The notes: generated by a model not told the origin, from the letters alone. A stretch of 64,000 nucleotides of DNA from Candidatus Omnitrophota bacterium (GCA_018830005.1 JAHJTE010000001.1:449332-513331); one strand, 5' to 3'; numbered from the stretch's first letter, positions 12,052 through 61,345 are shown. Program-made: numbers and translations.

Positions 12052-12056
12052 AAATT

Positions 12057-13121: not shown

Positions 13122-13129
13122 GAGTATCT

Positions 13130-15384: not shown

Positions 15385-15538
15385 TATTTGCCGTTGTTGG
15401 CAGATGTTTTATATAAGCCTTTGCGGAACAGAACCCGAACAATCGGATCTTAGGCGAGTATTTGATTTATAGCCTGTTGAGGCACGGATAATTCGATAAA
15501 GCGTCTACAAACAGCAGATAGAATTCGTTGAATCTGAA

Positions 15539-15733
15539 ATGAATGTATCAGATAAAGAAGTTATATTCTTGCTTCAACTTGAAGATGTTCAGGAAGAAGC
15601 TATGCAGAAACTTAATCGCAGTCTGACTGCGGATGAGTTGTATGAGGTTAAAAAAGGAGTTGAGTTCGGATTAGAGCATTGGCCGGAAGTTGTCCGGCAT
15701 GCAATTGACAATCTGAAGGAGCATTCTAAATAG
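15539..15733 (+). CDS. hypothetical small protein
   Basis: 64-aa ORF with no recognisable motif. Confidence 0.3.
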   Translation: MNVSDKEVIFLLQLEDVQEEAMQKLNRSLTADELYEVKKGVEFGLEHWPEVVRHAIDNLKEHSK

Positions 15734-15918
15734 GTAAAGAATTTTGGGATATGGTAGGCGGCTCAGGAACGTACGAGGAAGTTCTGGGAATCTATCAGGA
15801 AGTCGGCAAGGAAAAAGGCTCTGATATGTTGGATCAATTAGCGTTAGGTTACTAAGGTAAAATCCTACCAAAAGTCCATCCTTTCGAAAGATTCAGAATC
15901 GGTTTATCTAAAAGGACG

Positions 15919-45220: not shown

Positions 45221-45250
45221 TTGACAAATGTATCTCTTTATGTTAGTATA
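45221..45250 (+). promoter_or_regulatory. sigma70-type promoter of the hydrogenase operon
   Basis: TTGACA at 45221-45226, a 17-18 nt spacer, then TAGTAT. Confidence 0.55.
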
Positions 45251-46365: not shown

Positions 46366-47173
46366 TCCATACAGGCCTATTGAGGCAGAAGTCTTCGATA
46401 CAATCACAGAGACGCCTACAATAAAGACGATTAGATTCAAACCAAAAGAAGAGATAACGTTTCAAACAGGACAGTTCATAGAGTTGACTATTCCTGGTGT
46501 TGGAGAGGCCCCTTTTACTCCCTCATCGCGACCTTCTGTTAAAGATATAATGGAAGTTACTGTAATGAAAGTAGGCAAGGTTACTGAGAAGATTCACGAG
46601 TTGAAAGCGGGTGATATTATAGGAGTGAGGGGCCCTTTTGGGAAAGGATATCCTTTAGATGAATTTAGGGGAAAGGAAATCTTGGTTGTAGGCGGAGGTT
46701 GCGGCTTTGCGCCTTTAAGAAGTCTAATGTATTCTCTGTTTGAAAGAAGCGATGACTTTAAGAAATTATTCTTTAGAGGCGGCTGTAAAACATCTAAGGA
46801 GTTGGTATATAGAAGCGAGGCAGATGAGTGGGCCAAGAGAAAAGATTTAGATTTGAAACTTACAGTCGACAAAGGTGATAGTAGCTGGAAGGGACACGTG
46901 GGCCTGGTAACGACTATTTTAGATGATGTAAAGATGAATTATAAGCAAGGCATTGCGATTGTTTGTGGTCCTCCCATAATGATGAAATTTGCAACTATGA
47001 AATTGCTCGAAATGGGATTTGAGGAGAATAATATCTATCTTTCTATGGAAAAAAATATGTCCTGCGGCATTGGAAAATGCGGTCATTGTAGAATAGGCAC
47101 TTATTATGCATGCAAAGATGGGCCGGTCTTTCGTTATGACAAGATAAATAAATTCCATGAAATTTGGGAGTGA
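46358..47173 (+). CDS. AsrB / sulfhydrogenase-gamma / PyrK-like FAD-NAD(P)H oxidoreductase subunit with [2Fe-2S]
   Basis: VGEAPFT, GGGCGFAPLRS, and a C-terminal MSCGIGKCGHCRIGTYYACKDGPVF. Confidence 0.85.
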   Translation: MNNPYRPIEAEVFDTITETPTIKTIRFKPKEEITFQTGQFIELTIPGVGEAPFTPSSRPSVKDIMEVTVMKVGKVTEKIHELKAGDIIGVRGPFGKGYPLDEFRGKEILVVGGGCGFAPLRSLMYSLFERSDDFKKLFFRGGCKTSKELVYRSEADEWAKRKDLDLKLTVDKGDSSWKGHVGLVTTILDDVKMNYKQGIAIVCGPPIMMKFATMKLLEMGFEENNIYLSMEKNMSCGIGKCGHCRIGTYYACKDGPVFRYDKINKFHEIWE

Positions 47174-47174
47174 T

Positions 47175-47732
47175 ATGAGTACGAGTGCAGAAGAAATTCA
47201 TCAGGGAAAATTAAATATCAAGTCGGAAAAGGGTAAGGACAAGAGGCTTTTTATCGATCTTGATATCTGTTCTTCAGGTGAATGTAAGGACTGCGAAATA
47301 AATTGTAGTTATTTTTATCATCCAGATAATAATGGCATTATGTCAGTAGCAGAGCTAGCAACTTATGCTCTTGTCTGCAGAAGATGCGAAGAGCCGCACT
47401 GCGTTAATGCCTGTCCTGTCCAAGCCCTGGAACAGGATAAGGATAAGGATAAGTTTTTGATAAGGCATAATATGCGTTGCATAAGCTGTAAGTCTTGCTC
47501 CCATGCCTGTCCTTACGGCACGATATATCCAGAAAATGTCCCTTTGCTAATTCAGAATTGCGATTTTTGTCTTGATAGAAAAAATAAGCCGGATGAACCG
47601 TTGTGTATAAAGACCTGCCCTTACGGTGCCTTGGCCTTGAAGAAGAGCGATATCAAATTGGATAAGGATACTTTTTTAGTAGGTGATAATCTAATAGTCC
47701 ATTCTACACATTGGGATAGGGAAAAGGCGTGA
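47175..47732 (+). CDS. 4Fe-4S ferredoxin-domain protein (hydrogenase Fe-S subunit)
   Basis: Several CxxCxxCxxxCP-like clusters (CRRCEEPHCVNACP; CISCKSCSHACPYG). Confidence 0.75.
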   Translation: MSTSAEEIHQGKLNIKSEKGKDKRLFIDLDICSSGECKDCEINCSYFYHPDNNGIMSVAELATYALVCRRCEEPHCVNACPVQALEQDKDKDKFLIRHNMRCISCKSCSHACPYGTIYPENVPLLIQNCDFCLDRKNKPDEPLCIKTCPYGALALKKSDIKLDKDTFLVGDNLIVHSTHWDREKA

Positions 47733-48652
47733 TCTATATAATCTATTTTTTATTTTTTGGTTTTCTCTTAACAGCTGTTATCGGACTTCTGGCAAGCTGG
47801 ATAGATAGGAAGGTTACGGCCAGGGTTCAATATCGGGTTGGTCCGCCGATTCTGCAGCCATTGATAGATATCATAAAACTTCTCGGTAAGGAGACGCTTA
47901 TCCCAGGTAGGGCTCATAAGCTAACATTTTTGATGGCACCGGTTATTGGTATCGCGGCTGTTATATTAGTATCGACCTTACTATGGATGAATAATATCAG
48001 TCCTGATAAGGGCTTCCTGGGTGACCTTATAGTAGTATTATATTTATTGGTGATTCCTTCTTTGAGCATTGTTATGGGTGGCTTTGCATCAGGCAATCCG
48101 CTTGCAAGTTTAGGCGCTTCCAGAGAGATGAAGCTTGTATTAGGTTATGAACTTCCATTTTTGCTTGCAGTATTGGTTCCGATTATAAAATCTAATTTTT
48201 CTATTAGACTTGGCGAGATACTAGGTTTTCAGGCAGCTAGTGGTGTTATTATTGGGAGCTTCTCTGGCATCTTGGCCTTTATTGTTATCTTGATGTGTGT
48301 GCAGGCAAAGTTGGCCCTGGTTCCTTTTGATATACCAGAGGCAGAGACAGAAATAATAGGCGGTCCCTTGATAGAATATTCAGGTAGCGCACTTGCTATT
48401 TATAGACTCATGAAGAATATGTTCTTATTTGTATTGCCGTTTTTCTTGATGATATTATTCATGGGCGGGTTTAGATTTGATGGCATACACCTTTTATATG
48501 GTATTTTAAAATATGTTGGCATAGTTGCTCTTATAACAGTTATAAGAAATACTAACCCCCGCGTAAGGATTGATCAGGCGATTAGATTTTTTTGGGGTCC
48601 AATGACTATAATTGCTTTAGTTGCACTTGTCTTGGCATTGTTGGGGAAATAG
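47729..48652 (+). CDS. membrane subunit, NuoH/HycD/MbhM-like
   Basis: 307 aa, 8 transmembrane helices, complex-I subunit-1 family pattern. Confidence 0.8.
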   Translation: MIYIIYFLFFGFLLTAVIGLLASWIDRKVTARVQYRVGPPILQPLIDIIKLLGKETLIPGRAHKLTFLMAPVIGIAAVILVSTLLWMNNISPDKGFLGDLIVVLYLLVIPSLSIVMGGFASGNPLASLGASREMKLVLGYELPFLLAVLVPIIKSNFSIRLGEILGFQAASGVIIGSFSGILAFIVILMCVQAKLALVPFDIPEAETEIIGGPLIEYSGSALAIYRLMKNMFLFVLPFFLMILFMGGFRFDGIHLLYGILKYVGIVALITVIRNTNPRVRIDQAIRFFWGPMTIIALVALVLALLGK

Positions 48653-48656
48653 CAAA

Positions 48657-49079
48657 ATGAGTATGAAATTAAAGGCATTACTGAAATCTCCCTGGGTGTT
48701 TCACCTCTCGACCGGTAGTTGCAACAACTGCGATATCGAGATACTAGACTGTCTTACGCCCAGATTTGATGTGGAAAGATTTGGAATGCTCTTAGCAGGC
48801 AGTATTAGGCATGCTGATGTGCTTTTGGTTACTGGTTCAGGTAACAGAAAATCAATGCAGAGAGTAAAAAAATTGTACGAGCAGGTTCCAAAACCATGCC
48901 TTGTCGTTGCTATAGGAGAGTGTTCTTTGTCTCGAGGTATGTTTATTGACAGTTATAATTGCCCTATGCCTTTGGATAAAATTATACCAGTTGATGTTTA
49001 TATACCAGGCTGTCCTCCTAAACCAGAGGCGATTATTGCAGGTGTAGTAAAATTGATTGAGAAGGTAAAAAAGGGCTAA
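48657..49079 (+). CDS. [NiFe]-hydrogenase small subunit, NuoB/MbhJ-like
   Basis: GSCNNCDIE...GECS...PGCPP Cys motifs of the NuoB/HycG family. Confidence 0.85.
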   Translation: MSMKLKALLKSPWVFHLSTGSCNNCDIEILDCLTPRFDVERFGMLLAGSIRHADVLLVTGSGNRKSMQRVKKLYEQVPKPCLVVAIGECSLSRGMFIDSYNCPMPLDKIIPVDVYIPGCPPKPEAIIAGVVKLIEKVKKG

Positions 49080-49088
49080 AGAGAAAAA

Positions 49089-49562
49089 ATGAAAAGAGAA
49101 GAAGTCTTATCTGATTTAAAAGAAAGATTCAAAAAAGATATAGTTGATTTTTTTGATAAGCATTCCAAAAGGGTTTATATCGAGATTAAGCCTGAATCAT
49201 TGGTTAAGGTAGCCTCCTACATTTTTAAAGACTTAAAGGCGCGCTTTAATATTGCATCTGGACTAGATGCGCGAAATCATATGGAGATTTTATATCACTT
49301 TATATTAGAAGAAATAAATCTACTGATATCTCTAAGAGTAAAACTGGATAAGTCAAAACTGGAAATAGATTCACTCAGCAATGTCTTTGAGGGTGCGAAT
49401 TGGATTGAGAGAGAAATCCATGAACTTCTGGGTATAAATTTTAGGAATCACCCTGATTTGAGAAGACTTCTTTTGTCAGAGGATTGGCCTGAAGGCGTTT
49501 ATCCATTGAGAAGAGATTATAAAGAGTGGGATAAAAAGGCTATCCGGGATAGGGGAGTATAA
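49089..49562 (+). CDS. NuoC/HycE-N/MbhK-like subunit
   Basis: 157 aa matching the 30-kDa subunit family (EREIHELLGINF). Confidence 0.8.
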   Translation: MKREEVLSDLKERFKKDIVDFFDKHSKRVYIEIKPESLVKVASYIFKDLKARFNIASGLDARNHMEILYHFILEEINLLISLRVKLDKSKLEIDSLSNVFEGANWIEREIHELLGINFRNHPDLRRLLLSEDWPEGVYPLRRDYKEWDKKAIRDRGV

Positions 49563-50743
49563 TGGCGCGAACAATAGTTCCAATAGGACCATATCATCCG
49601 CTTCAAGAAGAGCCGGAATTTTTTACCCTGACAGTTGAAGGTGAAAGGGTAGTGGATGTTGATGTGCAGATAGGCTATAACCATAGGGGAATAGAAAAAC
49701 TCTCTGAGAGCAAGACATTTGACCAATCTACTTTTGTCATAGAGAGAATCTGCGGTATATGTTCTACAAGCCATCCATTTGCTTATACAAGGGCAGTAGA
49801 GGATATCATACCTATGGAGGTACCTCCTAGGGCAAAATATATAAGGACAATAATCGCCGAAGGCGAAAGAATACATTCGCATCTGTTATGGCTTGGGCTT
49901 GCCGGTCATTTCTTAGGATATAATACTGTTTATATGTGGGCCTGGAAGTTACGAGAAGAAATCTTAGATGTGATGGAAATATTATCCGGCAACAGAAATA
50001 ACTATGCTATGTTTAAGCCCGGCGGAGTAAGAAGAGATATAAAGCCTGAAGATATTCCGGGCGTCTTAAGCAAGATAGACTCTATTGTTCCTACTTTAAC
50101 AATGCTCAAGAAAGCTGTTATAGATGATCCTGTTCTTCATGCGCGTACCAAGGGAGTCGGGATTCTTACAAAAGAAGAGTCTATAGACTTTTGTGCGCTT
50201 GGGCCTACTGCGAGGGCATCAGGCGTTGGGCGAGACCTGAGAAAAGATTCTCCTTACGGAGCATATGAAGAAGTAGAATGGGACATGATAGTAACCCAGA
50301 ATGGCGATGTGTTTGATAAGGTAGTTGTCAGGATACTGGAGACATTTGAGTCGATAAAGATAATGAAGCACTGCCTATCAAATTTGCCAAAAGGTGAAAT
50401 AGACGCAAATATAAAGAGTATCCCGTCGGGTGAAGGTATTGGTCATATCGAGGCACCAAGGGGTGAATGTTTCCATTATGTAAGAAGCGATGGAACTAAT
50501 AGGCCAGTCCGACATAAAGTACGCGCACCAACCTTTATGAACCTGCCGACATATAAGGCGACTATTGTGGGTGAGACGATTTCTGATGCAACAATAATTT
50601 TAGCTGCTATAGATCCCTGCTATTGTTGTACGGAAAGGATGGCAGTGCGCAATAAGAAGGGTGAGAAGATGTATAACGGTCAGGATCTAGTTAGATTATC
50701 ACAGGATAAGACTAAACAGATTAGAAAGAAGATGGGTGTGTAG
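49562..50743 (+). CDS. group-4 [NiFe]-hydrogenase large subunit (MbhL/EchE-like)
   Basis: N-terminal RICGICSTSH and C-terminal DPCYCCTER Ni-binding motifs are both intact. A roughly 30-aa C-terminal extension is present for endopeptidase processing. Confidence 0.9.
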   Translation: MARTIVPIGPYHPLQEEPEFFTLTVEGERVVDVDVQIGYNHRGIEKLSESKTFDQSTFVIERICGICSTSHPFAYTRAVEDIIPMEVPPRAKYIRTIIAEGERIHSHLLWLGLAGHFLGYNTVYMWAWKLREEILDVMEILSGNRNNYAMFKPGGVRRDIKPEDIPGVLSKIDSIVPTLTMLKKAVIDDPVLHARTKGVGILTKEESIDFCALGPTARASGVGRDLRKDSPYGAYEEVEWDMIVTQNGDVFDKVVVRILETFESIKIMKHCLSNLPKGEIDANIKSIPSGEGIGHIEAPRGECFHYVRSDGTNRPVRHKVRAPTFMNLPTYKATIVGETISDATIILAAIDPCYCCTERMAVRNKKGEKMYNGQDLVRLSQDKTKQIRKKMGV

Positions 50744-52406
50744 GGATATGAATATGAGCGCTGAACTTTTCAGAATGGACAATCTATCCTTTTTCGTAAG
50801 TTTATTTATAGTTTTCTTCTCTTTGCTTACGATTATTTATTCCTTCGGATTCATGAAGGAGAGAAAAGGAAAGCTTAGCTATTACCTATATATACTACTG
50901 ACACTGATATCTTCCTTAGGTGTTGTTGTTTCGAATAATCTTGCATTGCTTGTTGTATTTTGGGGATTTTCCGGATTTCTTCTTTATCTTTTGATAGGTT
51001 TTGGTCAAACAAAGCGCACACCTTCCACTGCTAAAAAATCATTTATAATAATCGGCGCAACAGATGCATTTATGCTTTTGGGCTTGGCCTTTATCTGGCA
51101 TTTAGCAGGCTCGTTTAATATAGACAAGTTAAGCATTCCTCTAGATAATAGGCTTTCAGTTATTGCCTATCTAAGTCTTGCTGTAGGTGCCTTTGCTAAG
51201 GCAGGGGCTATGCCTTTTCATACATGGGTGCCAGACACTGCCGAAGATGCGCCTACCCCTGTTAGTGCGTTTTTACCTGCATCTTTAGATAAACTTCTTG
51301 GTATATATTTCCTGGCGCGAATCTCGCTGGATATCTTTCAGATGAATGCAGCCATGAATATGTTTTTAATGCTGCTGGGGAGTTTTACTATCGTGGCCGC
51401 GGTTATGATGGCACTTATGCAACATGATTTAAAGAGGCTTTTGGGTTATCATGCTGTAAGCCAGGTCGGATACATGGTTTTAGGTATAGGTACAGGCAGC
51501 CTTATTGGTATTGCAGGCGGCCTGTTTCATATGCTAAATAATGCTATATATAAATCCTGTTTATTTTTCTCTGGAGGTATAGTCGAGAAAAAAACACAGA
51601 CAACAGATTTGGAAAAATTAGGCGGCCTTGCCAAAATTATGCCCACTGCGTTTATTACGTTTTTAATAGCCTCATTCGCAATATCAGGTGTGCCGCCATT
51701 TAATGGCTTTGTTTCAAAATGGATGCTCTATCAAGGTATAATCGAGACTGCCCAAAGAGGTGGTTTTGTCTGGATAATATGCCTTATTGCGGCTATGTTC
51801 GGCAGCGCACTTACCTTAGCAAGCTTTATGAAACTAATACACGCTATATTTTTAGGTCAAGTCTCTAAAGAGCTCTCAATTGCAAGCAACAAGCAAAGGG
51901 ACATTGGTATTACTATGTATATTGCGCCTGTTGTACTTGCGGCCTTATGTGTTATCTTTGGCGTATTTGCATATAAGATACCGCTTAATATGTTTATCTT
52001 TCCTAGTTTAGGCCAAGATGTAGGATTTTCTGGGATATGGAATCCTGGTCTGGCTACTATTTTGATACTTCTAGGCATTCTCTTAGGTGTTCTAATTTAT
52101 TTTCTAGGTACGATAAAGACCGCGAGAGAATCTGAGGCCTTTATAGGAGGGGAGATACTAGAAAAACAGCCGGATATGAGGATTTCAGGAACTGAATTCT
52201 ATAATACGATCAAAAACATAGGTCCATTAAAGGTTATCTATAGATTAGCAGATAATAAGGTGTTTGATATTTATTCTGTTGGTGAAAAGATAACCCTAAC
52301 GTTTAATAAGATATTGCGCTATATTCACAATGGCATTCTTTCTTCCTATTTAGCATGGACCCTTTTAGGGATGATTGTTTTGTTCTACGTTTTATTGTTG
52401 AGGTAG
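50736..52406 (+). CDS. Mrp antiporter subunit D-like / NuoL-M-N family membrane subunit (MbhH-like)
   Basis: 556 aa, about 14 transmembrane helices, with the conserved WVPDA.D.PTPVSA motif. Confidence 0.8.
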   Translation: MCRDMNMSAELFRMDNLSFFVSLFIVFFSLLTIIYSFGFMKERKGKLSYYLYILLTLISSLGVVVSNNLALLVVFWGFSGFLLYLLIGFGQTKRTPSTAKKSFIIIGATDAFMLLGLAFIWHLAGSFNIDKLSIPLDNRLSVIAYLSLAVGAFAKAGAMPFHTWVPDTAEDAPTPVSAFLPASLDKLLGIYFLARISLDIFQMNAAMNMFLMLLGSFTIVAAVMMALMQHDLKRLLGYHAVSQVGYMVLGIGTGSLIGIAGGLFHMLNNAIYKSCLFFSGGIVEKKTQTTDLEKLGGLAKIMPTAFITFLIASFAISGVPPFNGFVSKWMLYQGIIETAQRGGFVWIICLIAAMFGSALTLASFMKLIHAIFLGQVSKELSIASNKQRDIGITMYIAPVVLAALCVIFGVFAYKIPLNMFIFPSLGQDVGFSGIWNPGLATILILLGILLGVLIYFLGTIKTARESEAFIGGEILEKQPDMRISGTEFYNTIKNIGPLKVIYRLADNKVFDIYSVGEKITLTFNKILRYIHNGILSSYLAWTLLGMIVLFYVLLLR

Positions 52407-52410
52407 TTAG

Positions 52411-52959
52411 ATGGCAGAGCTGTACTTGTTATTAATATTTATGATTATCGCTGCGATAATCGCCGTTGAAGTAGAGGATCTTCTTTCTTCGGTAATTGCA
52501 GTTGGTGCTGTAGGCTTAGGGCTTTCAATAGTTTTTTTGATACTCAAGGCACCTGATGTAGCCATTACACAGCTTGTTGTTGAGATATTGTGCCTTATTA
52601 TCCTGATAAGGGCGACATTGAAGAGGGATATTCCTTTTTCAACTACAGGCAGGTGGTTTTTTAATACACTTATTACAGTCTGTTTTATTGCAGTATTTCT
52701 GATGTTGGCTCACAAATGCTTAAAGGATATACCAGAATTTGGTTTTCCGATAATGCGGGTTGCAAAAACATATTTGTCACAAGGACTGAATAAGACAGGT
52801 GCCAGTAATCTCGTTGCTTCTGTAATACTTGATTTTAGGGCCTATGATACTTTGGGTGAGGCCACAATATTATTTACAGCTGTAGTGGGTGTTTTGGCGA
52901 TTGTGCGCGGCGTCGGCAGAAAGAAAGAAAAACAAATAATTAGGGAAGAGGATGAGTAG
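52411..52959 (+). CDS. MnhB-domain membrane subunit
   Basis: APDVAITQLVVE MnhB signature. Confidence 0.7.
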   Translation: MAELYLLLIFMIIAAIIAVEVEDLLSSVIAVGAVGLGLSIVFLILKAPDVAITQLVVEILCLIILIRATLKRDIPFSTTGRWFFNTLITVCFIAVFLMLAHKCLKDIPEFGFPIMRVAKTYLSQGLNKTGASNLVASVILDFRAYDTLGEATILFTAVVGVLAIVRGVGRKKEKQIIREEDE

Positions 52960-53407
52960 AGAACACGATAAAGGCATGACTCTGATTGTAAAGACGATTA
53001 CGCGTCTGACAGTAGGACTGATACTCCTTTACGGTATCTATATTATTTCGCATGGCCATGTATCGCCAGGAGGCGGATTTGCCGGAGGCGTTATCGTGGC
53101 ATTGAGCTTTATTCATCTTATGCTTGCTTATGGAAAGGAAGAGGCCTTCAAGCGATTGTCCAAATCAGCTGCCTCAATTTTTGAGAGTACGGGTGCAATA
53201 TTGTTTTTGGCTATTGCTCTACTTGGATTTAGCGGTGGTTACTTTTTCCTAAACTTTTTACCTAAAGGAGAGCCTTTCAGGCTATTTAGCGCTGGCACGA
53301 TTCCTTTAAGCAATATAGCCATAAGCCTAAAAGTAGGTGCAGGTCTTTTTGCAATTTTCGTTGCACTCGTATTGTTAAAATTGGATTCCAAAAAGGATAA
53401 AGAATGA
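52952..53407 (+). CDS. Mrp/Mbh small membrane subunit (MrpB C-terminal-like / MbhE-like)
   Basis: Transmembrane protein (GGGFAGGVIVALSF). Overlapping starts and stops with its neighbours. Confidence 0.6.
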   Translation: MSREHDKGMTLIVKTITRLTVGLILLYGIYIISHGHVSPGGGFAGGVIVALSFIHLMLAYGKEEAFKRLSKSAASIFESTGAILFLAIALLGFSGGYFFLNFLPKGEPFRLFSAGTIPLSNIAISLKVGAGLFAIFVALVLLKLDSKKDKE

Positions 53408-53739
53408 TTTATTTACTCTGTCTTTGTCTATTCTCAGTCGGACTTTATTGCATATTAAGGAAACGCAATATTATTAAGATTATTATTGGCATCGTCATAG
53501 CCGAATATGCAGTAAACCTATTTTTTATATTGATAGCCTTTAGGATGAATGGCCGCGCTCCGCTCTTTTCACCTGATGTGAACATAACAAATATGGTTGA
53601 TCCCTTACCGCAGGCATTGGTGTTGACAGCGATTGTAATTGGACTTGCGACCACTGCATTATTAGTAGCTATTGCTATGAGAATTTATGAGAAATACGGG
53701 ACATTTGATATAACAAAGATAAGGGAGCTTAGGGGATGA
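53404..53739 (+). CDS. MrpC/NuoK-like subunit
   Basis: 111 aa with 3 transmembrane helices. ATGA overlaps on both sides. Confidence 0.75.
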   Translation: MIYLLCLCLFSVGLYCILRKRNIIKIIIGIVIAEYAVNLFFILIAFRMNGRAPLFSPDVNITNMVDPLPQALVLTAIVIGLATTALLVAIAMRIYEKYGTFDITKIRELRG

Positions 53740-55241
53740 TGCAGTTAGAGAGTATAATACCGCTTTTTGTCGCTATTCCATTAGGAGGCGCGTTTCTAAT
53801 CTCGCTTCTCGGCAAAAGAATAAAATGGCTGCCGGATTGTTTTGGTGTAATAACAACGCTCCTTTTGTGTGGTCTGTCTTTGTTTAGCGTGCGCCTTTGT
53901 AGTACATTTGGAATACTTACCTATAATGTTGGTTCTTGGCTGCCGCCTATAGGCATAGGAATGGTTTTAGATGGATTGGCCTCATTTATGCTTGTGACTG
54001 TAAATTTGATTGCATGCTGTGTTACGGTTTATTCAATAAATTACATGGAAAGATTCACCGCTAAATGGAAATTTTATACATTGTTTCTTTTGATGCTAGG
54101 CGGGATGAACGGTGTGATTATAAGCGGAGACATATTTAATCTTTTTGTATTTTTAGAGATTGCCTCTGTGGCAAGCTATGCCTTGGTTGCATTCGGAACA
54201 GAGCGCCATGAACTTGAGGCAGCGTTTAAATATGCTGTTATGGGTACGGTAGCTTCGCTTTTTATTCTTTTGGGTATAGCATTTTTATACAGTTATACTT
54301 CTACACTGAATATGGCGGATATGTCAAGAATCTTGATGCTAAAAGGAACAGGTAATATTACCCTTTTGGTAAGCGTTCTCTTTATTATGGGATTCGGCTT
54401 GAAGGCAGCACTCGTTCCTTTCCATGCCTGGCTGCCAGATGCCCATCCTTCTGCACCCGCACCAATATCTGCTATGCTCTCTGGCGTATTAATAAAATCA
54501 CTTGGCATCTATGCCTTATGTAGAATATTCTACAATGTAATTGGTATAAGCCCTGCCATATCTTCAATATTAATGTTTTTAGGAACACTGTCTATGGTTA
54601 TTGGCGGCTATTTGGCTATTGGCCAATGGGATTTCAAACGACTCCTGGCATATTCATCTATAAGCCAGATAGGCTATATTGTTCTGGGTATTGGCCTGGG
54701 AACGCCATTAGGTATATTGGGTGGATTGTTTCACCTTTTTAACCATTCTATATTTAAGTCACTGCTCTTTTTGAATTCCGGAGCCCTAGAATATTCAACA
54801 GGCACACGCGATTTGCAGAAGATGGGAGGGCTTTCCAAGAGAATGCCTTTTACGAATGCAACGAGTCTCATAGGATCTATGTCCATTGCAGGCGTTCCAC
54901 CTTTTAATGGATTCTGGAGTAAACTACTTATTATAATTGCAGCAGTACAGGCGCAGAGATATGGATATGCATTTTGGGCTGTTTTGGTGAGTATATTGAC
55001 CTTGGCAATGTATACTAAGGTCCTGAAATACGCATTCTTTGGCAAATTAAAGGAAAGATTGAACAGGATAAAAGAGGTACCGTTTTTTATGAAGTTGTCT
55101 ATGGGTGTATTGGCATTTATATGTTTAGCAGGAGGACTCTTGCTTATTTCCGGCGAAGCCGGGTCTTTTCTTACTATGTCAACAGATGTTCTTTTAAATG
55201 GCACTGGATATGCGGCAATGGTTTTAAGGAATATACGATGA
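53736..55241 (+). CDS. Mrp antiporter subunit D / NuoN-like
   Basis: 501 aa with WLPDAHPSAPAPISA. Confidence 0.8.
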   Translation: MMQLESIIPLFVAIPLGGAFLISLLGKRIKWLPDCFGVITTLLLCGLSLFSVRLCSTFGILTYNVGSWLPPIGIGMVLDGLASFMLVTVNLIACCVTVYSINYMERFTAKWKFYTLFLLMLGGMNGVIISGDIFNLFVFLEIASVASYALVAFGTERHELEAAFKYAVMGTVASLFILLGIAFLYSYTSTLNMADMSRILMLKGTGNITLLVSVLFIMGFGLKAALVPFHAWLPDAHPSAPAPISAMLSGVLIKSLGIYALCRIFYNVIGISPAISSILMFLGTLSMVIGGYLAIGQWDFKRLLAYSSISQIGYIVLGIGLGTPLGILGGLFHLFNHSIFKSLLFLNSGALEYSTGTRDLQKMGGLSKRMPFTNATSLIGSMSIAGVPPFNGFWSKLLIIIAAVQAQRYGYAFWAVLVSILTLAMYTKVLKYAFFGKLKERLNRIKEVPFFMKLSMGVLAFICLAGGLLLISGEAGSFLTMSTDVLLNGTGYAAMVLRNIR

Positions 55242-55735
55242 AGAGCAGGATAATTTTATTTATAGTAGCGTTTGTGACTTGGTCCTTTTTGAACTGGGTG
55301 CCAGACTGGCAGCATCTTGTTACAGGCGTTTTTGTTTCCGGCCTTGTGGCTTATCTGACAGGTGATTTATTTATCCAGACGCCGGGAAAATTAAAACATC
55401 GCCTACGTTATTATTACTTTTTCTTTAATTATCTGCCCATATTCTTATGGGAAATAATTAAGGCCAATATAGATGTCGCCTATAGGGTTATACATCCAAA
55501 TCTGCCTATAAATCCTGGGATTGTGAAAGTAAAGACCAGTTTGAAGTCAGATACAGCCTTGACATTTTTGGCTAATTCGATAACGCTTACACCTGGTACT
55601 CTAAGCGTTGATATTGATAGAGATAATGGAATTTTGTATGTGCATTGGATTAACGTAGAGACAGAGGATATCGAATCTGCCACAAAGCGTATTGTGGGAC
55701 GTTTTGAAAAGATGCTGGCGAAAATTTTTGATTAG
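55238..55735 (+). CDS. MrpE-like subunit
   Basis: The start is ATG 55238, within an ATGA overlap with the preceding stop. It matches the MnhE family. Confidence 0.7.
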   Translation: MKSRIILFIVAFVTWSFLNWVPDWQHLVTGVFVSGLVAYLTGDLFIQTPGKLKHRLRYYYFFFNYLPIFLWEIIKANIDVAYRVIHPNLPINPGIVKVKTSLKSDTALTFLANSITLTPGTLSVDIDRDNGILYVHWINVETEDIESATKRIVGRFEKMLAKIFD

Positions 55736-55755
55736 GATAAGATTTTGGAGCAATA

Positions 55756-56142
55756 ATGAAAGATTCTAACAGGTTAAAGATAGTCAAATGGATTATAGGC
55801 GCAATTATCTTGACAGCCATTTTGGTCCTGATAATGATTCGGCCTATGCCCTGTCTTTTTCAAGCCGGGCTTATCTACGTTGAGTTTCTGTGTAGAGCGC
55901 TTTACATAATTATATTGGCCTGTTTCCTATGTCTTTACCGTATCTATCGAGGCCCAACCGGAGCTGACAGGATTGTTGCCATAGATATCTTGGGTATCAT
56001 GATTGTAGGATTCTGTTCATTATTGACTATAGCAACAGGTCGCCTCTGGTATATTGATATTGGTATAGCTTGGGCGCTTCAGAGTTTTATAAGCACGTTA
56101 GCACTTTCCAAATACTTGGAAGGAAGAGGCTTTGATGAATAA
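55756..56142 (+). CDS. MrpF-like subunit
   Basis: Small 3-transmembrane protein. Position in the Mrp gene order. Confidence 0.6.
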   Translation: MKDSNRLKIVKWIIGAIILTAILVLIMIRPMPCLFQAGLIYVEFLCRALYIIILACFLCLYRIYRGPTGADRIVAIDILGIMIVGFCSLLTIATGRLWYIDIGIAWALQSFISTLALSKYLEGRGFDE

Positions 56143-56470
56143 CATAATAGGACTGATATTTATAACGGTTGGTCTAATGTTTGATCTATTGGGATGCCTT
56201 GGGCTTGTACGGCTTCCGGATGTATATAATCGTCTGCAGGCTGCCACAAAATGTGTTACCCTAGGCACCTGTAGTATACTGTTTGGGACATTTCTCATTG
56301 TTGGATTTACTGCTGCAGGAATGAAATCACTTTTATGTATAATATTCCTTATCTTAACCTCTCCTGTGGCAGCGCATGCCATAGCCAGAGGTGCGCATCG
56401 CTCAGGTGTCAAGCTTTGGGATAAGAGCGTTGTTGATAAATACGCCCAAGATAAAGAGGGCGAGGTCTAG
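56132..56470 (+). CDS. MrpG-like subunit
   Basis: RLPDVYNRLQAATKCVTLG MnhG signature. Confidence 0.75.
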   Translation: MMNNIIGLIFITVGLMFDLLGCLGLVRLPDVYNRLQAATKCVTLGTCSILFGTFLIVGFTAAGMKSLLCIIFLILTSPVAAHAIARGAHRSGVKLWDKSVVDKYAQDKEGEV

Positions 56471-56472
56471 AG

Positions 56473-57087
56473 ATGAAATATCCTAAAATTAGAGAGTTGA
56501 TTGAGGCAATAAAGGCGCTTATTAAAGGACCTTATACGTCAAAATTTCCAAAACAGCCGCATCAACCACATCCGAATTTCAGAGGACAGCCGAAGTTTGA
56601 CGATAAAAAATGTGTTGGCTGTCTTGCCTGCGAAGAGGTCTGTCCGGTGGGAGCGATTGCTCATAGTGACGTAGATGCGACAGATGGTAAGCATAAGCGA
56701 ATTATAAGTCATTATACAGATACATGTATATTCTGTGGTCAGTGTGAGGCAGCTTGTATTGCTGATCATGAAGGTATAAAGTTATCCAATGATTGGGAGC
56801 TTTCATTCTTTGATAGGAGTAAGGCCGAAGAGAAAATAGAAAGAGAGTTGCAGGTTTGCGAAATCTGCGCTAAACCTATTGCCTGCAAAAAGCACCTGGC
56901 CTGGATTGCCGAAAGGATAGGAGAACTCAGTTTTTCAAGCCCCACACTTTATCTTACCCATCTTAAAAACCTTGGAATAGTTGATGAAAACATTACTTCT
57001 GTATTGAAAGACCAAGGACGTTCTGACCGAGTAAAAATTCTCTGTGCCGCCTGCAGGAGAGAAACTACCCTGACTACGAAAGAGTAA
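56473..57087 (+). CDS. 2x[4Fe-4S] ferredoxin subunit (NuoI/MbhN-like)
   Basis: CVGCLACEEVCPVGAI and CIFCGQCEAACIADH. Confidence 0.8.
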   Translation: MKYPKIRELIEAIKALIKGPYTSKFPKQPHQPHPNFRGQPKFDDKKCVGCLACEEVCPVGAIAHSDVDATDGKHKRIISHYTDTCIFCGQCEAACIADHEGIKLSNDWELSFFDRSKAEEKIERELQVCEICAKPIACKKHLAWIAERIGELSFSSPTLYLTHLKNLGIVDENITSVLKDQGRSDRVKILCAACRRETTLTTKE

Positions 57088-57138: not shown

Positions 57139-57594
57139 ATGCAAATGAAAGATATTTTCAAAGGAAAGGTTGTTGTTGTGGGTGTCGGTAATATCTTGCG
57201 TAGAGATGATGGCTTTGGTCCTGTTCTGATTGATAAGCTAAAAGCAAATACAAGTGTAGTATGTATTGATGCAGGTTCCTCTCTTGAAGGTTACGCTGGC
57301 AAAATTGCAAAAGAGAAGCCTGATACGATATTAATCGCTGACGCTGTGCATTTGGGGCTTGAACCAGGAAACTATGACATTTTGAAGTCATCTGAGATAG
57401 TAAAAGGTGGTTTAACTACGCATGATATTTCACCTAGAATGTTCCTTGACTATCTAAAAAAAGAAACAGGGGCAGATATATATATGCTGGGTATTCAACC
57501 AGAGGATGTTTCTTTTGGCGAGGGGTTATCTGAGAGCGTTAAAGGAGCCCTGGAAGAAATAGTGGGTTTAATAAGAGAGGCAGAACATGCATGA
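57139..57594 (+). CDS. hycI: hydrogenase maturation endopeptidase (HycI/HyaD family)
   Basis: VVVVGVGNILRRDDGFGPVLIDKL...ADAV. Confidence 0.85.
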   Translation: MQMKDIFKGKVVVVGVGNILRRDDGFGPVLIDKLKANTSVVCIDAGSSLEGYAGKIAKEKPDTILIADAVHLGLEPGNYDILKSSEIVKGGLTTHDISPRMFLDYLKKETGADIYMLGIQPEDVSFGEGLSESVKGALEEIVGLIREAEHA

Positions 57595-57829
57595 GTCACA
57601 TTTGATTGAGCCGATAATCAAAGGAATATCAGAGCACGCAAAAAAAGAAGGGGCCAAAAAAGTATCCAAGCTAATTCTAAAGATTGGAGAGCTGAATTGC
57701 CTAAATGAGGATTCGTTTAAGGCAACATTCTCTCTTCTGTCAAAAGGGACTATGCTTGATGGCGCTAAATTAGAGATTGTATTTTTCCCAGGCTCCAGGA
57801 TAGAGGTTGTATCCTTTGATGTGGAATAG
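57587..57829 (+). CDS. hypA: HypA-like protein lacking the C-terminal zinc finger
   Basis: The N-terminus MHESHLIEPIIKGISEHAKKEGAKKVSKLILKIGELNCLNEDS matches HypA. The ORF ends after 80 aa with no CxxC...CxxC. Confidence 0.6.
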   Translation: MHESHLIEPIIKGISEHAKKEGAKKVSKLILKIGELNCLNEDSFKATFSLLSKGTMLDGAKLEIVFFPGSRIEVVSFDVE

Positions 57830-57865
57830 AATTTTACCAATCTACATATAAGAGAAAGATAAACA

Positions 57866-59167
57866 ATGTGTTATGCAATTCCCGGAAAGGTAAAGGAAAT
57901 AGGCGAAAAATCAGTGCTGGTTGACTATTTTGGCGAGACAAGAAAAGCGATTAACGAATTTTACGATGTTCGTATAGGTGACTATGTCTGTGCCCAGGGA
58001 GGTTTTGTAATAAAAAAGGTTTCTCCTTCCGAGGCAGAGAGCACTCTCTCGGCCTGGCAGGAGCTTTTTTTCGAGCTTAAGCAAATAGATTTACGCCTTT
58101 CCAGATTAGATCTTAAAAATAAAGGGATAGATAAGAGACTTTCTTCAATACTGGATAATGCTTTAGAAAACAAAAGCCTGTCTTTAGAGGATTTACTGTA
58201 TCTATTCAATACAGAAAGCCGTTCTGGGATTGAACTGATTTATAAGACCGCTAATTTCCTTCGTCAAAAATACATTAAGAATTCCTGCTGTGTACATGGG
58301 ATAATTGAGATTTCAAATTATTGCACGCAGGGTTGCATGTATTGTGGTATATCGACTCATAACAAGGCTCTTGGCCGGTATAGAATGACTCATAAAGAAA
58401 TAGTTGATTCAGCCCTCCTGGCAATAGAGGAATTTGGATTTAAGGCCATCCTACTACAGAGCGGCGAAGATGCATTCTATACTGCTGATAGGCTTGCTGA
58501 TATAGTTGCGGAAATAAAGGCAAAGGCAGGCGTTCTTATCTGTATAAGTTTTGGCGAGATAGGTATTGATGGATTAGAAAAGCTTTATAAGGCTGGGGCA
58601 AGGGCAATCTTGATGCGTTTTGAGACTTCAAATCCAAAGATCTATGAAAGACTGCATCCTGGCAGGAGCTTGAATACGCGCTTAGACCACATTAAAAAGG
58701 CAGGGCAAATCGGTTATTTGATTATGACCGGTGGACTTATTGGATTGCCGGATCAGACCAGAGAAGATATTATAAACGATATATATCTGGCTAAGGAGTT
58801 ACAAGCTGAGATGTATTCCTTTGGTCCTTTTCTGCCGCATCCAGAGACGCCATTAGCTTCTAACTCTCCTCCTAATGAAGATGATGTATTGAAGGCCCTG
58901 GCATTAACTAGACTTATCGATCCAGAAAAGAGCAAGATCTTAGTAACTACTGCTTTCGAGACACTTTGTCCTGATGCCCGTAGGCATGGGCTTCTTGCAG
59001 GCGCAAATTCAGTAATGCTTAATGTAACCCCTATTAAATATAGAAAACAGTATTCAATTTATCCTAATAGGGCCTACGATAAAGAAGAAATAACGACTCA
59101 GATTAAAGAGACAATAGCACTTCTGCAATCTCTTGGCAGGGCCCCTACGGATTTAGGCGTGAATTAA
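57866..59167 (+). CDS. HypC (N-terminal 75 aa) fused to HydE-type radical SAM maturase
   Basis: MCYAIPGKVKEI...GDYVCAQGGFVI matches HypC, with the essential Cys2. The remainder carries CTQGCMYCG, YRMTHKEIVDSALLAIEEFGFKAILLQSGED, GLPDQTREDI, GPFLPHPETPLAS and GANSVMLNVTP, which match HydE. Confidence 0.85.
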   Translation: MCYAIPGKVKEIGEKSVLVDYFGETRKAINEFYDVRIGDYVCAQGGFVIKKVSPSEAESTLSAWQELFFELKQIDLRLSRLDLKNKGIDKRLSSILDNALENKSLSLEDLLYLFNTESRSGIELIYKTANFLRQKYIKNSCCVHGIIEISNYCTQGCMYCGISTHNKALGRYRMTHKEIVDSALLAIEEFGFKAILLQSGEDAFYTADRLADIVAEIKAKAGVLICISFGEIGIDGLEKLYKAGARAILMRFETSNPKIYERLHPGRSLNTRLDHIKKAGQIGYLIMTGGLIGLPDQTREDIINDIYLAKELQAEMYSFGPFLPHPETPLASNSPPNEDDVLKALALTRLIDPEKSKILVTTAFETLCPDARRHGLLAGANSVMLNVTPIKYRKQYSIYPNRAYDKEEITTQIKETIALLQSLGRAPTDLGVN

Positions 59168-59173
59168 TAGCAA

Positions 59174-59842
59174 TTGATAAAAACTATGAAAGTTAAAACA
59201 AAGTCAAAGGCCAGCTTTTCTCTTGAGACAATTAAACGTCTGAGTCTATACTTGAGAAATTTAAAGAGGGCCAAGGAGCGCAATGTTGATGTTATTTCCT
59301 CTGATAAGATAAGTCAGTTTCTTAATGTAACGCCTGTTCAGTTCAGAAAGGATTTGTCATACTTTGGAGGTTTTGGCAAAAGAGGCGTTGGCTATAACGT
59401 GGAAAAATTGATACTGGAGATCGAGAATATATTAGGAGTAAATAAGGAATGGAAGATTATTATGGTAGGTGTGGGAAGATTAGGAAGCGCCCTTTTAAGC
59501 TTTGAAGGCTTTTCTAAATTCAACATCAAAATAAGCTTTTGCTTTGATGTTGACGAAGAGAAAACGGGGAAAACAAAAAAGGGAGTAGAAATCCTGCATA
59601 TAAAAGATATGAAGAATATTATAAAAAATAATGATATTAAAATAGCAATAATTTCAACCCCGCCTGAGGCAGCGCAGGATGTCGCTGATGAGTTGGTGGA
59701 TGCAGGGATAAAAGGAATTTTAAATTTTGCACCCAGCATCCTTAAAGTCCCTGAATATGTCTCGGTCTCAAATGTTGATATGGCCTGTGAGTTGGAGAGT
59801 TTGATATTTTTTGCAAAGCGTAAACGCACCCTTAAGAGGTAA
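59174..59842 (+). CDS. rex: redox-sensing transcriptional repressor Rex
   Basis: IKRLSLYLRNL..., FSYFGGFGKRGVGYNV, Rossmann VGVGRLGSAL, and GIKGILNFAP. Confidence 0.85.
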   Translation: MIKTMKVKTKSKASFSLETIKRLSLYLRNLKRAKERNVDVISSDKISQFLNVTPVQFRKDLSYFGGFGKRGVGYNVEKLILEIENILGVNKEWKIIMVGVGRLGSALLSFEGFSKFNIKISFCFDVDEEKTGKTKKGVEILHIKDMKNIIKNNDIKIAIISTPPEAAQDVADELVDAGIKGILNFAPSILKVPEYVSVSNVDMACELESLIFFAKRKRTLKR

Positions 59843-59845
59843 TAG

Positions 59846-61345
59846 ATGCTCTTAGAGACAGTAAAAAAAGATTCCTGGATAGGCAATAGGATAAAAAAAG
59901 ACCAAATTGAAAAATATTTGAGTAAGGGTGAGAGTTTTATTAATGAAGGTTTAATAAATCAGGCATTGATTACTAATATTGAAGCCTCTCCTGCAAGAAT
60001 CAAGGATATCCTTAAGAAATCATTAGAGGTTAAAACCCTGACCCTTGATGAGGCCGCAGCCCTATTGAATGTTAAGGATAGCTCGTTATGGGAGGAGATG
60101 AGGCAGACTGCGGCTCAAGTTAAGAGAAAGGTTTACGATAACAGAATTGTTACCTTTGCGCCTTTATATCTTAGTAATCTCTGCGTAAATAATTGTCTTT
60201 ATTGTGCTTTTAGAGAAGACAATTCGATAATAAGAAGAAGATCGCTCAAGCTAGATGAGGTGCGCAGGGAAACAGAGGCATTGGCAGGAGAGATTGGACA
60301 TAAACGCTTAATAGTTGTTTATGGAGAACATCCAAAAACAGATATAGATTATATGGCTTCTACAATAGGAACAATTTACGGGGTCAAGGTAAAGACAAAG
60401 AATGGTTGCGGCCAAATACGCAGGGTTAATGTTAATGCCGCACCATTATCCATAGAAGATTTAGGGGTTTTACATGGATTGGGAATAGGAACCTATCAGG
60501 TGTTTCAGGAGACCTACCATTATGAAACTTACGAGAAGTTTCATCCCAAAGGGACGATAAAGGCAGATTATAAATGGAGATTGTATTGCATGCATCGGGC
60601 GCTTGAGGCAGGTATTGATGATATAGGTATCGGTGTCCTCTTTGGCTTATATAACTGGAAATTCGAAGTCTTAGCGCTCCTTTCTCATGCGCGCGAACTT
60701 GAGCAAAAATTCGCAGTAGGTCCTCATACTATTTCTTTCCCCCGAGTTGAAGCAGCTGCCAATACCCCATCTTTTACTAAGATATCGCCTTATAAGGTCA
60801 GCGATGAAGATTTCGAGAAATTGGTTACTGTAATAAGACTAGCTGTTCCTTATACAGGCATGATCCTTACTGCTCGGGAAAGTGCACAGATAAGAAAAAA
60901 GGTTCTTCCTTTAGGTTGTACCCAGACAGATGCCTCTACAAGGATAGGCATAGGCGCTTATAGCGATCGTGAGTCTAAACAAGAAGGGGCAAGACAGCAG
61001 TTTTTCTTGGGTGATACCAGAGATTTAGATGAGGTAACAAGGGAATTACTTCAGATGGGTTATATTACTTCTTTCTGTACTGCTGGTTATCGCTGTGGCA
61101 GGACTGGAAAATGTATTATGCAGCTTCTTAGAACAGGCAAGGAAGGGGAATTCTGTAAATTAAATGCAATACTTACGTTTAGAGAATGGCTCGATGATTT
61201 TGCAAGCCCTCAAACAAAACAACTAGGTGAGAAAATTCTTAAGAAAGAATTAGACGAGGTTAAGTCTAGGATGCCCTTAGATTATTCTAGGCTCATCCAA
61301 TATTACGAAAGGATTAAGCAGGGAGAGAGGGATCTCTATTTCTAA
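59846..61345 (+). CDS. hydG: HydG-type radical SAM enzyme (tyrosine lyase family, ThiH/HydG)
   Basis: CVNNCLYCAFR, GTYQVFQETYHYETYEKFHP, GIDDIGIGVLFGLYNWKFEVLALLSHA, and a C-terminal Cys-containing auxiliary domain (SFCTAGYRCGRTGKC). Confidence 0.85.
   Translation: MLLETVKKDSWIGNRIKKDQIEKYLSKGESFINEGLINQALITNIEASPARIKDILKKSLEVKTLTLDEAAALLNVKDSSLWEEMRQTAAQVKRKVYDNRIVTFAPLYLSNLCVNNCLYCAFREDNSIIRRRSLKLDEVRRETEALAGEIGHKRLIVVYGEHPKTDIDYMASTIGTIYGVKVKTKNGCGQIRRVNVNAAPLSIEDLGVLHGLGIGTYQVFQETYHYETYEKFHPKGTIKADYKWRLYCMHRALEAGIDDIGIGVLFGLYNWKFEVLALLSHARELEQKFAVGPHTISFPRVEAAANTPSFTKISPYKVSDEDFEKLVTVIRLAVPYTGMILTARESAQIRKKVLPLGCTQTDASTRIGIGAYSDRESKQEGARQQFFLGDTRDLDEVTRELLQMGYITSFCTAGYRCGRTGKCIMQLLRTGKEGEFCKLNAILTFREWLDDFASPQTKQLGEKILKKELDEVKSRMPLDYSRLIQYYERIKQGERDLYF

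Follow-up and report, generated by a model that had tools for sequence, protein, structure and literature searches.

A HypC domain fused to a HydE paralogue and linked to HydG in the [NiFe]-hydrogenase operons of Omnitrophota and other bacteria

Chaperones of the HypC/HybG/HupF family carry the Fe(CN)2CO unit for [NiFe] hydrogenases, and HydE and HydG are maturases of [FeFe] hydrogenases. To our knowledge, the [FeFe] and [NiFe] maturation systems are considered unrelated. A locus of a Candidatus Omnitrophota bacterium raises the question of whether the two systems meet. It lies in a 64,000-nt stretch of DNA (GCA_018830005.1, JAHJTE010000001.1:449332-513331; hereafter the window, with all the features listed below on its + strand), where one gene, downstream of a group-4 [NiFe] hydrogenase operon, joins a HypC domain to a HydE-like radical S-adenosylmethionine (SAM) enzyme and is followed by rex and hydG. 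Judged by its sequence, the radical-SAM domain of this fusion is a distinct paralogue of HydE, here called HydE′, and not HydE itself. Below, we describe the fusion protein, the genes that accompany it, and the cofactor route that it may serve.

The HypC-HydE′ fusion protein

Positions 57866-59167 form one unbroken open reading frame (ORF) of 433 codons, with the following parts.

57866..58090, + strand: HypC domain (residues 1-75), with the N-terminal Cys2 and a beta-barrel; His replaced by Gln44
58091..58156, + strand: end of the long helix and linker (residues 76-97), partly conserved; L78 nearly invariant, S79 and D97 invariant
58157..59167, + strand: HydE-like radical-SAM triosephosphate isomerase (TIM) barrel, HydE′ (residues 98-433); 245.8 bits with TIGR03956
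58286..58297, + strand: C141-C142-V143-H144, the family-specific C-x-H site; C142 and H144 in 83 of 83 sequences
58322..58345, + strand: radical-SAM motif CX3CX2C (C153, C157, C160), invariant

This architecture is real. A protein identical to that of the window is encoded in the NCBI metagenome-assembled genome (MAG) GCA_043815545.1 and in a separate Logan assembly, and a search for other fusions and their neighbours, as proposed in the preliminary description of this locus, brought up more than 120 protein clusters that share the HypC plus radical-SAM architecture at 61-100 % identity, together with 83 related loci that were compared. The fusion is encoded by 354 GTDB species representatives from several phyla, mostly labelled Omnitrophota, with others in Margulisiibacteriota/Saganbacteria/WOR-1, Brevinematales/Spirochaetota, Atribacterota, Auribacterota, Elusimicrobia and WOR-3, and it is also present on complete chromosomes (CP070797.1 and CP070684.1). 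Purifying selection acts on both domains and on the linker, and W64 and D75 are invariant, as are the three radical-SAM cysteines. The preliminary description had worried that a frameshift or misassembly might have joined separate hypC and hydE genes. Such an artefact, or a pseudogene, is ruled out by the identical ORF in independent assemblies and by the number of clusters and species that share it; the conserved linker and a confident single-chain AlphaFold2 (AF2) model also speak against it, and we give this explanation practically no weight.

The architecture had been thought undescribed, and we found no account of it: within the literature that could be searched, neither a HypC-radical-SAM fusion nor an action of HydE or HydG on [NiFe] enzymes turned up, and maturation genes are not a subject of the papers on Omnitrophota and Margulisbacteria. 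Annotation pipelines label the fusion proteins variously as 'HypC', 'radical SAM protein', 'biotin synthase' or 'HydE', so that an annotation as HydE or HydG is no evidence of an [FeFe] hydrogenase in these phyla.

The N-terminal ~75 residues had been called a bona fide HypC. Residues 1-64 match PF01455 (HupF/HypC) with 53.7 bits against a cutoff of 28.5, and the score with TIGR00074 is 45.4 bits, the cutoff of that model being 48. M1-C2-Y3-A4-I5-P6-G7 is invariant among 69 fusion sequences, and HypC always stands at the N-terminus of the fusion, with Cys2 invariant, which fits the need for a free N-terminal Cys. In the AF2 model of the whole chain (predicted local distance difference test, pLDDT, 91.6; predicted template-modelling score, pTM, 0.91), the strands of the HypC part lie within residues 6-52 and its helix spans 54-78 (pLDDT ~77-90). 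The designation needs one correction: H51 of Escherichia coli HypC ('VHxGF') aligns with Gln44 ('AQGGF'), which is invariant among the 69 fusions (Ala in L012), while all four solved HypCs carry His there.

The remaining ~350 residues had been read as HydE. They are indeed HydE-like over their full length and share its fold, but they belong to a paralogue with a rebuilt product site. Residues 98-418 span the HydE model TIGR03956 from end to end, scoring 245.8 bits against an equivalog cutoff of 254.6, and residues 99-427 align with residues 9-334 of Thermotoga maritima HydE (247 bits, ~40 % identity). When the HydE′ model was compared with the structure 3CIX using Foldseek, the template-modelling score (TM-score), normalised to the target, was 0.93 and the root mean square deviation 1.4 Å. 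Some of the genomes that carry the fusion also encode a standalone HydE with much higher scores on TIGR03956: one of 359.6, next to HydG and with HydF alongside (L038), and one of 330.7, with HydA, HydG and the start of HydF (L058); a partial copy of a standalone canonical HydE occurs in L028. In a tree, the canonical HydEs (T. maritima, Monoglobus, L038 and L058) group together in 94 of 100 bootstraps, with all the fused domains outside. The fused domains are ~60 % identical to one another and 31-40 % identical to any canonical HydE, the copy in the same genome included. Other identities considered for the radical-SAM domain (HmdB/HcgA, PylB, BioB and ThiH) all scored far below their cutoffs.

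The functional residues of T. maritima HydE, with roles taken from the literature (PMC11826987, PMC10114646), were projected onto 83 fused sequences; T. maritima numbering is used here. The cluster ligands C63/C67/C70 as well as M224, M291 (M316 and M384 in the fusion) and L157 are retained in all 83. T269 is retained in 82, with one Ser, position V105 holds Val in 75 and Leu or Ile in 8, and K309 is R or K. Met224 and Met291 of HydE hold the mononuclear Fe(I)S(CO)2CN intermediates (PMC11826987). By contrast, three other residues are replaced in every one of the 83 sequences: R54 by H, R155 by G or A, and T134 by F, C or L, the window protein having H144, A247 (mostly G elsewhere) and C226 (mostly F elsewhere) at these positions. 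Position 52 is always Cys, creating a C-x-H motif, and in the window CCVH takes the place of V51-H52-I53-R54. The auxiliary-cluster cysteines of HydE are lost in the fused sequences. In canonical HydE, the Thr/Arg/Arg residues lie close to the exit toward HydF, where they touch the CN ligands of the product; mutation of one of them is reported to impair [FeFe] hydrogenase maturation (PMC11826987, PMC10114646).

The remodelled site tracks the HypC domain. Among 150 diverse HydE-like representatives, obtained by 50 % clustering from an exhaustive search of 1.84 billion proteins, 99 have the R/T/R residues and none of these carries HypC, whereas 21 of the 26 with the remodelled site do, the others being 2 fragments and 3 standalone proteins. 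The same survey contained further fusions. Three proteins (P0155, P0186 and P0200) combine an N-terminal PF11823 domain, a 'putative Se/S carrier', with a HydE-like radical-SAM domain that keeps R54 and T134 and has Asn at position 155. Another, of 803 residues (P0148), joins HydE to HydG, lacks HypC and retains the canonical R/T/R site; presumably it belongs to the [FeFe] pathway, in contrast to the triple fusions described below.

Genes that accompany the fusion

The 83 related loci (82 distinct) were compared gene by gene, with counts limited to loci with enough flanking sequence. They confirm the link with [NiFe] operons noted for the window: of 69 loci, 56 encode a [NiFe] large subunit no more than 12 kb upstream of the fusion, and of 78 loci, 57 have a HycI gene that ends at most 0.7 kb before it. 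The usual order is [NiFe] small subunit, large subunit, HycI, (mini-HypA), fusion, (Rex), HydG, and the partner hydrogenases are of group 4, as in the window, soluble and group-3b-like with AsrA/AsrB-like subunits, or Tat-type.

HydG also proved to be a genuine partner. It adjoins the fusion, or is separated from it only by rex, in 35 of 63 loci, and Rex lies between the two or beside them in ~40 related loci. In three separate lineages HypC, HydE′ and HydG form an in-frame triple fusion: L012, on the complete chromosome CP070797.1, and P0122 and P0129, each recovered from at least two independent assemblies and both located in [NiFe] clusters. The standalone HydE′ genes are directly followed by HydG in three of three cases and lie beside [NiFe] genes in two of the three. 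No split-off HypC was found 5' of these genes; one upstream fragment proved to be the C-terminal end of a [NiFe] large subunit. Clustering all ORFs of the 83 loci revealed no other conserved partner, such as a HypD analogue.

One standalone HydE′-HydG pair (L089:4766-7208) is found in an apparently archaeal contig, among genes for a histone-fold protein, a CDP-alcohol phosphatidyltransferase and an inositol-1-phosphate synthase; no hydrogenase gene was called in this 13.8-kb locus, which extends ~4.8 kb to the 5' side of HydE′ and ~8 kb to its 3' side. At another locus, ordered [NiFe]-HycI-fusion-HydG (L035), an 85-residue ORF directly after HydG (12757-13014) matches only positions 321-392 of HydF, the last 72; by its sequence it may be either a decayed hydF remnant or a stand-alone cluster-binding mini-HydF. 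The C-terminal half of HydF shows 60-75 % conservation between phyla, and its best 120 matches in a protein search were fragments from short contigs. Omnitrophota MAGs with a group 4g hydrogenase and Mrp, 91-93 % complete, were reported to have no identifiable [FeFe] hydrogenase (PMC8542988).

The genes for HypD, HypE and HypF show the opposite distribution. Using E. coli and Omnitrophota queries, no match to any of the three was obtained in the ~1.5 Mb made up of the window and ~90 neighbourhoods, and HypD is encoded neither in the window nor within ±10 kb of the fusion in 81 loci. Conversely, 82 HypD neighbourhoods contain HypC (70), HypE (68) and HypF (35), and neither HydE′ nor HydG in any of them. 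Metagenome matches to Omnitrophota HypD were, among those listed, 57-66 % identical and not lineage-specific.

The phylum does encode the canonical set elsewhere. One locus (L095) carries HypF'-HypC-HypD-HypE, HycI, a group-3c-like enzyme, HypA and HypB, and two others resemble it (L096 and L177); in both, HypC stands alone and HypA is full-length. The HypF of L177 (6097-7257) is a short form of ~386 residues in which only the HypF_C domains remain and those for acylphosphatase, zinc-finger and YrdC are lacking; a cut ORF of this kind is at L095:1-138, and L096 has a full HypF of 761 residues.

L177 can be compared with L018, a fusion-bearing locus with HydG, protease, TatC, Ni transporter, HypA and HypB and without HypDEF. 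Both share TatA-TatC...HypA-HypB synteny (HypB 67 % and TatC 50 % identical), and L177 holds HypF'-HypC-HypD-HypE where L018 has only a His-rich putative metal transporter, its fusion and HydG sitting upstream of its hydrogenase. At a further locus (L076), the fusion occupies the hypC slot after hypA-hypB, with no hypDE following. The contrast between L018 and L177 suggests a replacement of HypDEF, without proving it. The L018 transporter gene (18053-18814), between TatC and HypA, encodes a His-rich membrane protein (…HGHEHVHDQGKEHFHVHNHHHDHLHMHE…) that is probably a Ni/Co transporter.

In the window, the fusion stands in the following company.

45221..45249, + strand: promoter-like site TTGACA-17-TAGTAT with TG, a consensus match only, just 5' of the first hydrogenase gene
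45274..47732, + strand: three electron-transfer subunits, AsrA-like Fe-S (Fer4_22), AsrB-like FAD/NAD-binding and CooF-like 4Fe-4S (Pfam)
47729..49562, + strand: NuoH-like membrane, NuoB-like [NiFe] small and NuoC-like subunits (Pfam NADHdh, Oxidored_q6, Complex1_30kDa)
49562..50743, + strand: group-4 [NiFe] large subunit with motifs RICGICS..H and DPCYCC and a cleavable C-terminal extension
50736..56470, + strand: Mrp/Mbh-type antiporter-like membrane subunits (Pfam families read on the identical locus L001)
56473..57087, + strand: HycF/NuoI-like 2x[4Fe-4S] subunit (profile matches)
57139..57594, + strand: HycI-type large-subunit maturation endopeptidase (PF01750, 54.6 bits; TIGR00072, 115 bits)
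57587..57829, + strand: mini-HypA of 80 residues, starting MHESH (the N-terminal MHE nickel motif), without a Zn-finger
59174..59842, + strand: Rex redox-sensing repressor (262 bits)
59846..61345, + strand: HydG-type tyrosine-lyase radical-SAM maturase (TIGR03955, 463 bits; cutoff 312)
61076..61156, + strand: variant HydG C-terminal cluster motif C411-x2-G414-x2-C417-x5-C423-x13-C437, in place of CxxCx22C

The order HycI, HypA-like protein, fusion, rex, HydG given in the preliminary description was thus recovered ORF by ORF, and the large subunit has the intact Ni-binding motifs ascribed to it. The match of HydG to TIGR03955 covers residues 26-499, and the protein is ~55 % identical over its full length, C-terminal domain included, to Thermoanaerobacter italicus HydG (PDB 4WCX; 451 bits). 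Its SHAR aligns with YHAN of T. italicus HydG, the aligned His being, as we take it, the ligand of the dangler iron. In the variant cluster motif, Gly414 replaces the second Cys, C411 and C437 remain, and positions 417 and 423 have additional Cys. About half of the partner HydGs carry this variant, mostly at group-4 loci, and about half are canonical. The variant is not diagnostic of a new function, because the L038 HydG, encoded between HydF and canonical HydE, has it as well.

The mini-HypA matches only positions 1-68 of the 112 of Pfam HypA and has no CxxC motif; against the HypA family (PF01155, TIGR00100) it scores 62.3 bits, below a cutoff of 88.1. Such ~80-residue proteins are conserved in ~45 related loci (e.g. 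L003:9720-9962). Since the Omnitrophota with canonical HypCDEF have a full-length HypA of 114-117 residues (L095, L096 and L177), the truncated form seems to travel with the fusion.

The hydrogenase genes upstream run from 45274 to 57087. The genes from HycI to HydG are spaced by -8 to +36 bp, and HycI starts 51 bp past the last hydrogenase gene; because of this spacing, the maturation genes and the group-4 hydrogenase are probably a single transcription unit. The promoter-like match is consistent with an operon start ahead of 45274. The RxCGxC and DPCxxC ligands, the NuoB/C/D/H/L-like partners and the Mrp module, in which Proton_antipo_M, MbhD/E, MnhB, Oxidored_q2, MNHE, MrpF and PhaG (Pfam) were recognised at L001, mark the enzyme as a group-4 membrane-bound hydrogenase; the subgroup, which may be 4g, is adopted from the Omnitrophota literature.

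Homology searches detected no HypD/E/F, HydF or HydA anywhere in the 64-kb window, and the observation that HydF, HydA, HypE and HypF are missing nearby therefore stands for the window itself; as to HydA and HydF, it does not extend to the family, since 9 of the 83 loci carry an [FeFe] cluster. No canonical Rex operator (TTGTGAAN6TTCACAA, up to 3 mismatches) was found in the window, and Rfam and tRNA scans of the region returned nothing.

The AsrA-like/AsrB-like/CooF-like set at 45274-47732, placed before an Mbh/Mrp enzyme, implies an NAD(P)H-linked module on a membrane-bound hydrogenase. The AsrA/AsrB-like pair also precedes the [NiFe] subunits in 42-43 related loci and likewise accompanies the soluble group-3b-like enzymes, and the set has been noted for Saganbacteria (PMC6349859). 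Two other regions of the window are of separate interest. Downstream of HydG, from 61489 to 64000 and past the window end, lies a gene for a very large secreted protein with a signal peptide; its equivalent in L001 has 1854 residues and RHS/YD-shell repeats and is unrelated to the hydrogenase cluster. A defence-like island at 11632-22949 encodes a Vsr endonuclease, two C5-cytosine methylases (DruM/DrmMII-like), an HNH protein, a 743-residue protein without a family match, and two ORFs that match Druantia DruE, one its N-terminal part (286 bits) and the other its C-terminal part (360 bits); these matches suggest a Druantia-type system whose DruE is split.

A candidate route for the [NiFe] cofactor

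We know of no biological source of Fe-bound CO and CN made from an amino acid other than HydG. Considering that HydG is tied genetically, and in some lineages covalently, to HypC through a HydE paralogue with a rebuilt product site, we lean, without great confidence, towards the reading that HydG and HydE′ hand an Fe-CO/CN unit to HypC and so form a [NiFe]-dedicated module assembled from [FeFe] parts. The anatomy, paralogy, residue pattern and gene linkage of the module are observed; the substrate, product and hand-off that we infer for HydE′ would be as follows. HydG would cleave tyrosine and build an Fe(Cys)(CO)2(CN)-type synthon, as in H-cluster synthesis. HydE′ would take this synthon and, like HydE, attack the cysteine sulfur with a radical, but it would neither dimerise two Fe units nor feed HydF. 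Its remodelled lower site (Cys142-x-His144, Gly/Ala247, Phe/Cys226) would keep the mononuclear Fe-CO/CN unit, which would move to Cys2 of the tethered HypC domain. HypC would deliver the unit to the apo large subunit, directly or through HypD if there is any, and mini-HypA would then assist nickel insertion before HycI cuts the C-terminal extension. This reading is agnostic on whether HypD/E/F still give the scaffold or a second cyanide. A 2025 review singles out the anaerobic origin of the CO ligand of [NiFe] hydrogenases as the most pressing question of the field, with no mention of radical-SAM enzymes (PMC12134894). Because the anaerobic CO source is open, a vacant function exists for a route through HydG and HydE′ (PMC12134894).

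Several observations weigh against this proposal. The HydG synthon has 2 CO : 1 CN and the [NiFe] iron 1 CO : 2 CN, a mismatch that would require ligand exchange or an extra cyanide source. No HydG is encoded within 6 kb of the fusion in 25 of the 63 loci with enough downstream sequence. In the nine loci with an [FeFe] hydrogenase cluster, this cluster lies between Rex and HydG, a few kb downstream of the fusion, and places HydG at its far end; in four of the nine, those with sequence past HydG, HydG adjoins a canonical HydE. As there is one HydG per locus, its adjacency is partly explained by the [FeFe] system, and if the genome of the window encodes hydA, hydF and a canonical hydE elsewhere, as it may, HydG could be there for the [FeFe] system alone. 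Finally, the fused clade is monophyletic in only 37 of 100 bootstraps with a distant HydG root.

A bolder version, in which HydG and HypC::HydE′ fully replace HypD/HypE/HypF and all three diatomic ligands come from tyrosine and not from carbamoyl phosphate, has several observations on its side: zero HypD/E/F matches around the fusions, HypD neighbourhoods in turn free of HydE′ and HydG, an L018 accessory set otherwise complete and syntenic with the HypF'-HypC-HypD-HypE-bearing L177, an L076 fusion in the hypC slot with no hypDE after it, and an invariant Gln for the HypC His implicated in the canonical route. We nevertheless consider it unlikely, because HypDEF missing from ±10 kb may still be encoded elsewhere in the genome, HypC paralogues dedicated to one operon, such as E. 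coli hybG, are likewise found away from hypDE, [NiFe] maturation is considered to depend universally on HypD, and the 2 CO : 1 CN product of HydG does not fit Fe(CN)2CO. We give rather less credence to a third possibility, that HydE′ serves [NiFe] maturation but does not act on the HydG product, HydG being there only for [FeFe] enzymes. HydE′ might, for example, act on another small molecule to yield CO or a sulfur species, or directly change the HypC-bound iron. The link of the fusion with [NiFe] operons is stronger than that with HydG, given the 25 of 63 loci without a nearby HydG, and another small carrier domain, the PF11823 Se/S carrier, occurs in fusions with other HydE-like enzymes. HydE also turns over thiazolidine-type surrogates, so the fold can take other sulfur substrates (PMC10114646). 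On the other side stand the triple HypC-HydE′-HydG fusions of three lineages, the HydG directly 3' of every standalone HydE′ examined, and the invariance of the Fe-carrying M224 and M291.

It is more doubtful still that the fusion is one of convenience, in which the HypC domain serves the [NiFe] enzyme while the radical-SAM domain is simply the HydE of the lineage for an [FeFe] enzyme encoded elsewhere. On this view, two hydrogenase clusters came to adjoin, their neighbouring hypC and hydE genes merged where the clusters meet, and each domain works on its own. The order FUS-Rex-...-HydA-...-HydG of 9 of the 83 loci and the full-length likeness of the domain to HydE, fold included, are compatible with such a history, and some Omnitrophota hold both group 4g and A3 [FeFe] hydrogenases (PMC10066038). 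Yet genomes with an [FeFe] cluster keep a separate canonical HydE (L038, L058 and L028), and every fused domain has lost R54/T134/R155, the site whose mutation reportedly impairs [FeFe] maturation. Further, HypC accompanies none of the 99 canonical-type HydE representatives, unfused HydE′ still lies beside [NiFe] genes, and the fusion is conserved at ~60 % across several phyla.

The component families of this module are already known; what is new is a HydE subfamily fused to HypC, which could reveal a new cofactor route. The proposed hand-off from HydG through HydE′ to HypC would be a concrete, widespread and testable candidate answer to the question of the anaerobic origin of CO in [NiFe] hydrogenases and, if true, even in its weaker version, the first crossover between [FeFe] and [NiFe] maturation. 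HydE′ would also define a new HydE subfamily, and its C-x-H in place of R/T/R bears on the debated handling and release of the product by HydE. Should the bolder version hold, against our expectation, Fe(CN)2CO would be built entirely from tyrosine in these anaerobes, among them Omnitrophota, Margulisiibacteriota/Saganbacteria, Brevinematales and Atribacterota, with no need for HypD/E/F or carbamoyl phosphate, and this would be a second, evolutionarily independent [NiFe] cofactor pathway, acquired by recruiting [FeFe] machinery.

Comparison with known maturation systems

Compared with T. maritima HydE (PDB 3CIX, 7O1O), HydE′ shares the TIM barrel, the CX3CX2C motif, Met224/Met291, L157, T269, a basic residue at 309 and HydG as a neighbour. 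It differs in scoring below the equivalog cutoff, in falling outside the canonical clade, in lacking the auxiliary-cluster cysteines and in the changes of R54/T134/R155 to H / F,C,L / G,A with a new Cys52. It is moreover fused to HypC, encoded in [NiFe] rather than [FeFe] operons, and coexists with a true HydE in some genomes. The partner HydG of the window scores above its equivalog cutoff and is close to T. italicus HydG, differing in its variant cluster motif and in having HypC::HydE′ as its partner in a [NiFe] operon, with no HydF nearby.

With HypC/HybG/HupF, the fusion shares MC(x)(x)(I/V)PG with its essential Cys2, a predicted beta-barrel and C-terminal helix and, like the enzyme-specific HybG, an operon place after the structural genes and the protease. 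Unlike these chaperones, it has Gln ('AQGGF') for His, and its C-terminal helix runs into a 335-residue radical-SAM enzyme; it is never beside hypD or hypE, whereas standalone HypC accompanies HypD in 70 of 82 HypD neighbourhoods.

The likeness to HypX is one of functional analogy only. HypX, the aerobic CO-ligand synthase of O2-tolerant [NiFe] hydrogenases, is an accessory enzyme that adds to the Hyp machinery by providing CO to the HypC-bound iron (PMC12134894), and the present proteins would play an analogous part. The fold of HypX and its chemistry, from formyl-tetrahydrofolate to formyl-coenzyme A to CO, are unrelated, it works under oxic conditions, and it is not fused to HypC.

Maturase fusions as such are not new, algal HydEF being one of them. 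HydEF and the HydE-HydG fusion P0148 resemble the present proteins in combining consecutive maturases in one polypeptide. HydEF and, presumably, P0148 stay in the [FeFe] pathway, whereas HypC::HydE′ crosses from the [FeFe] to the [NiFe] toolkit.

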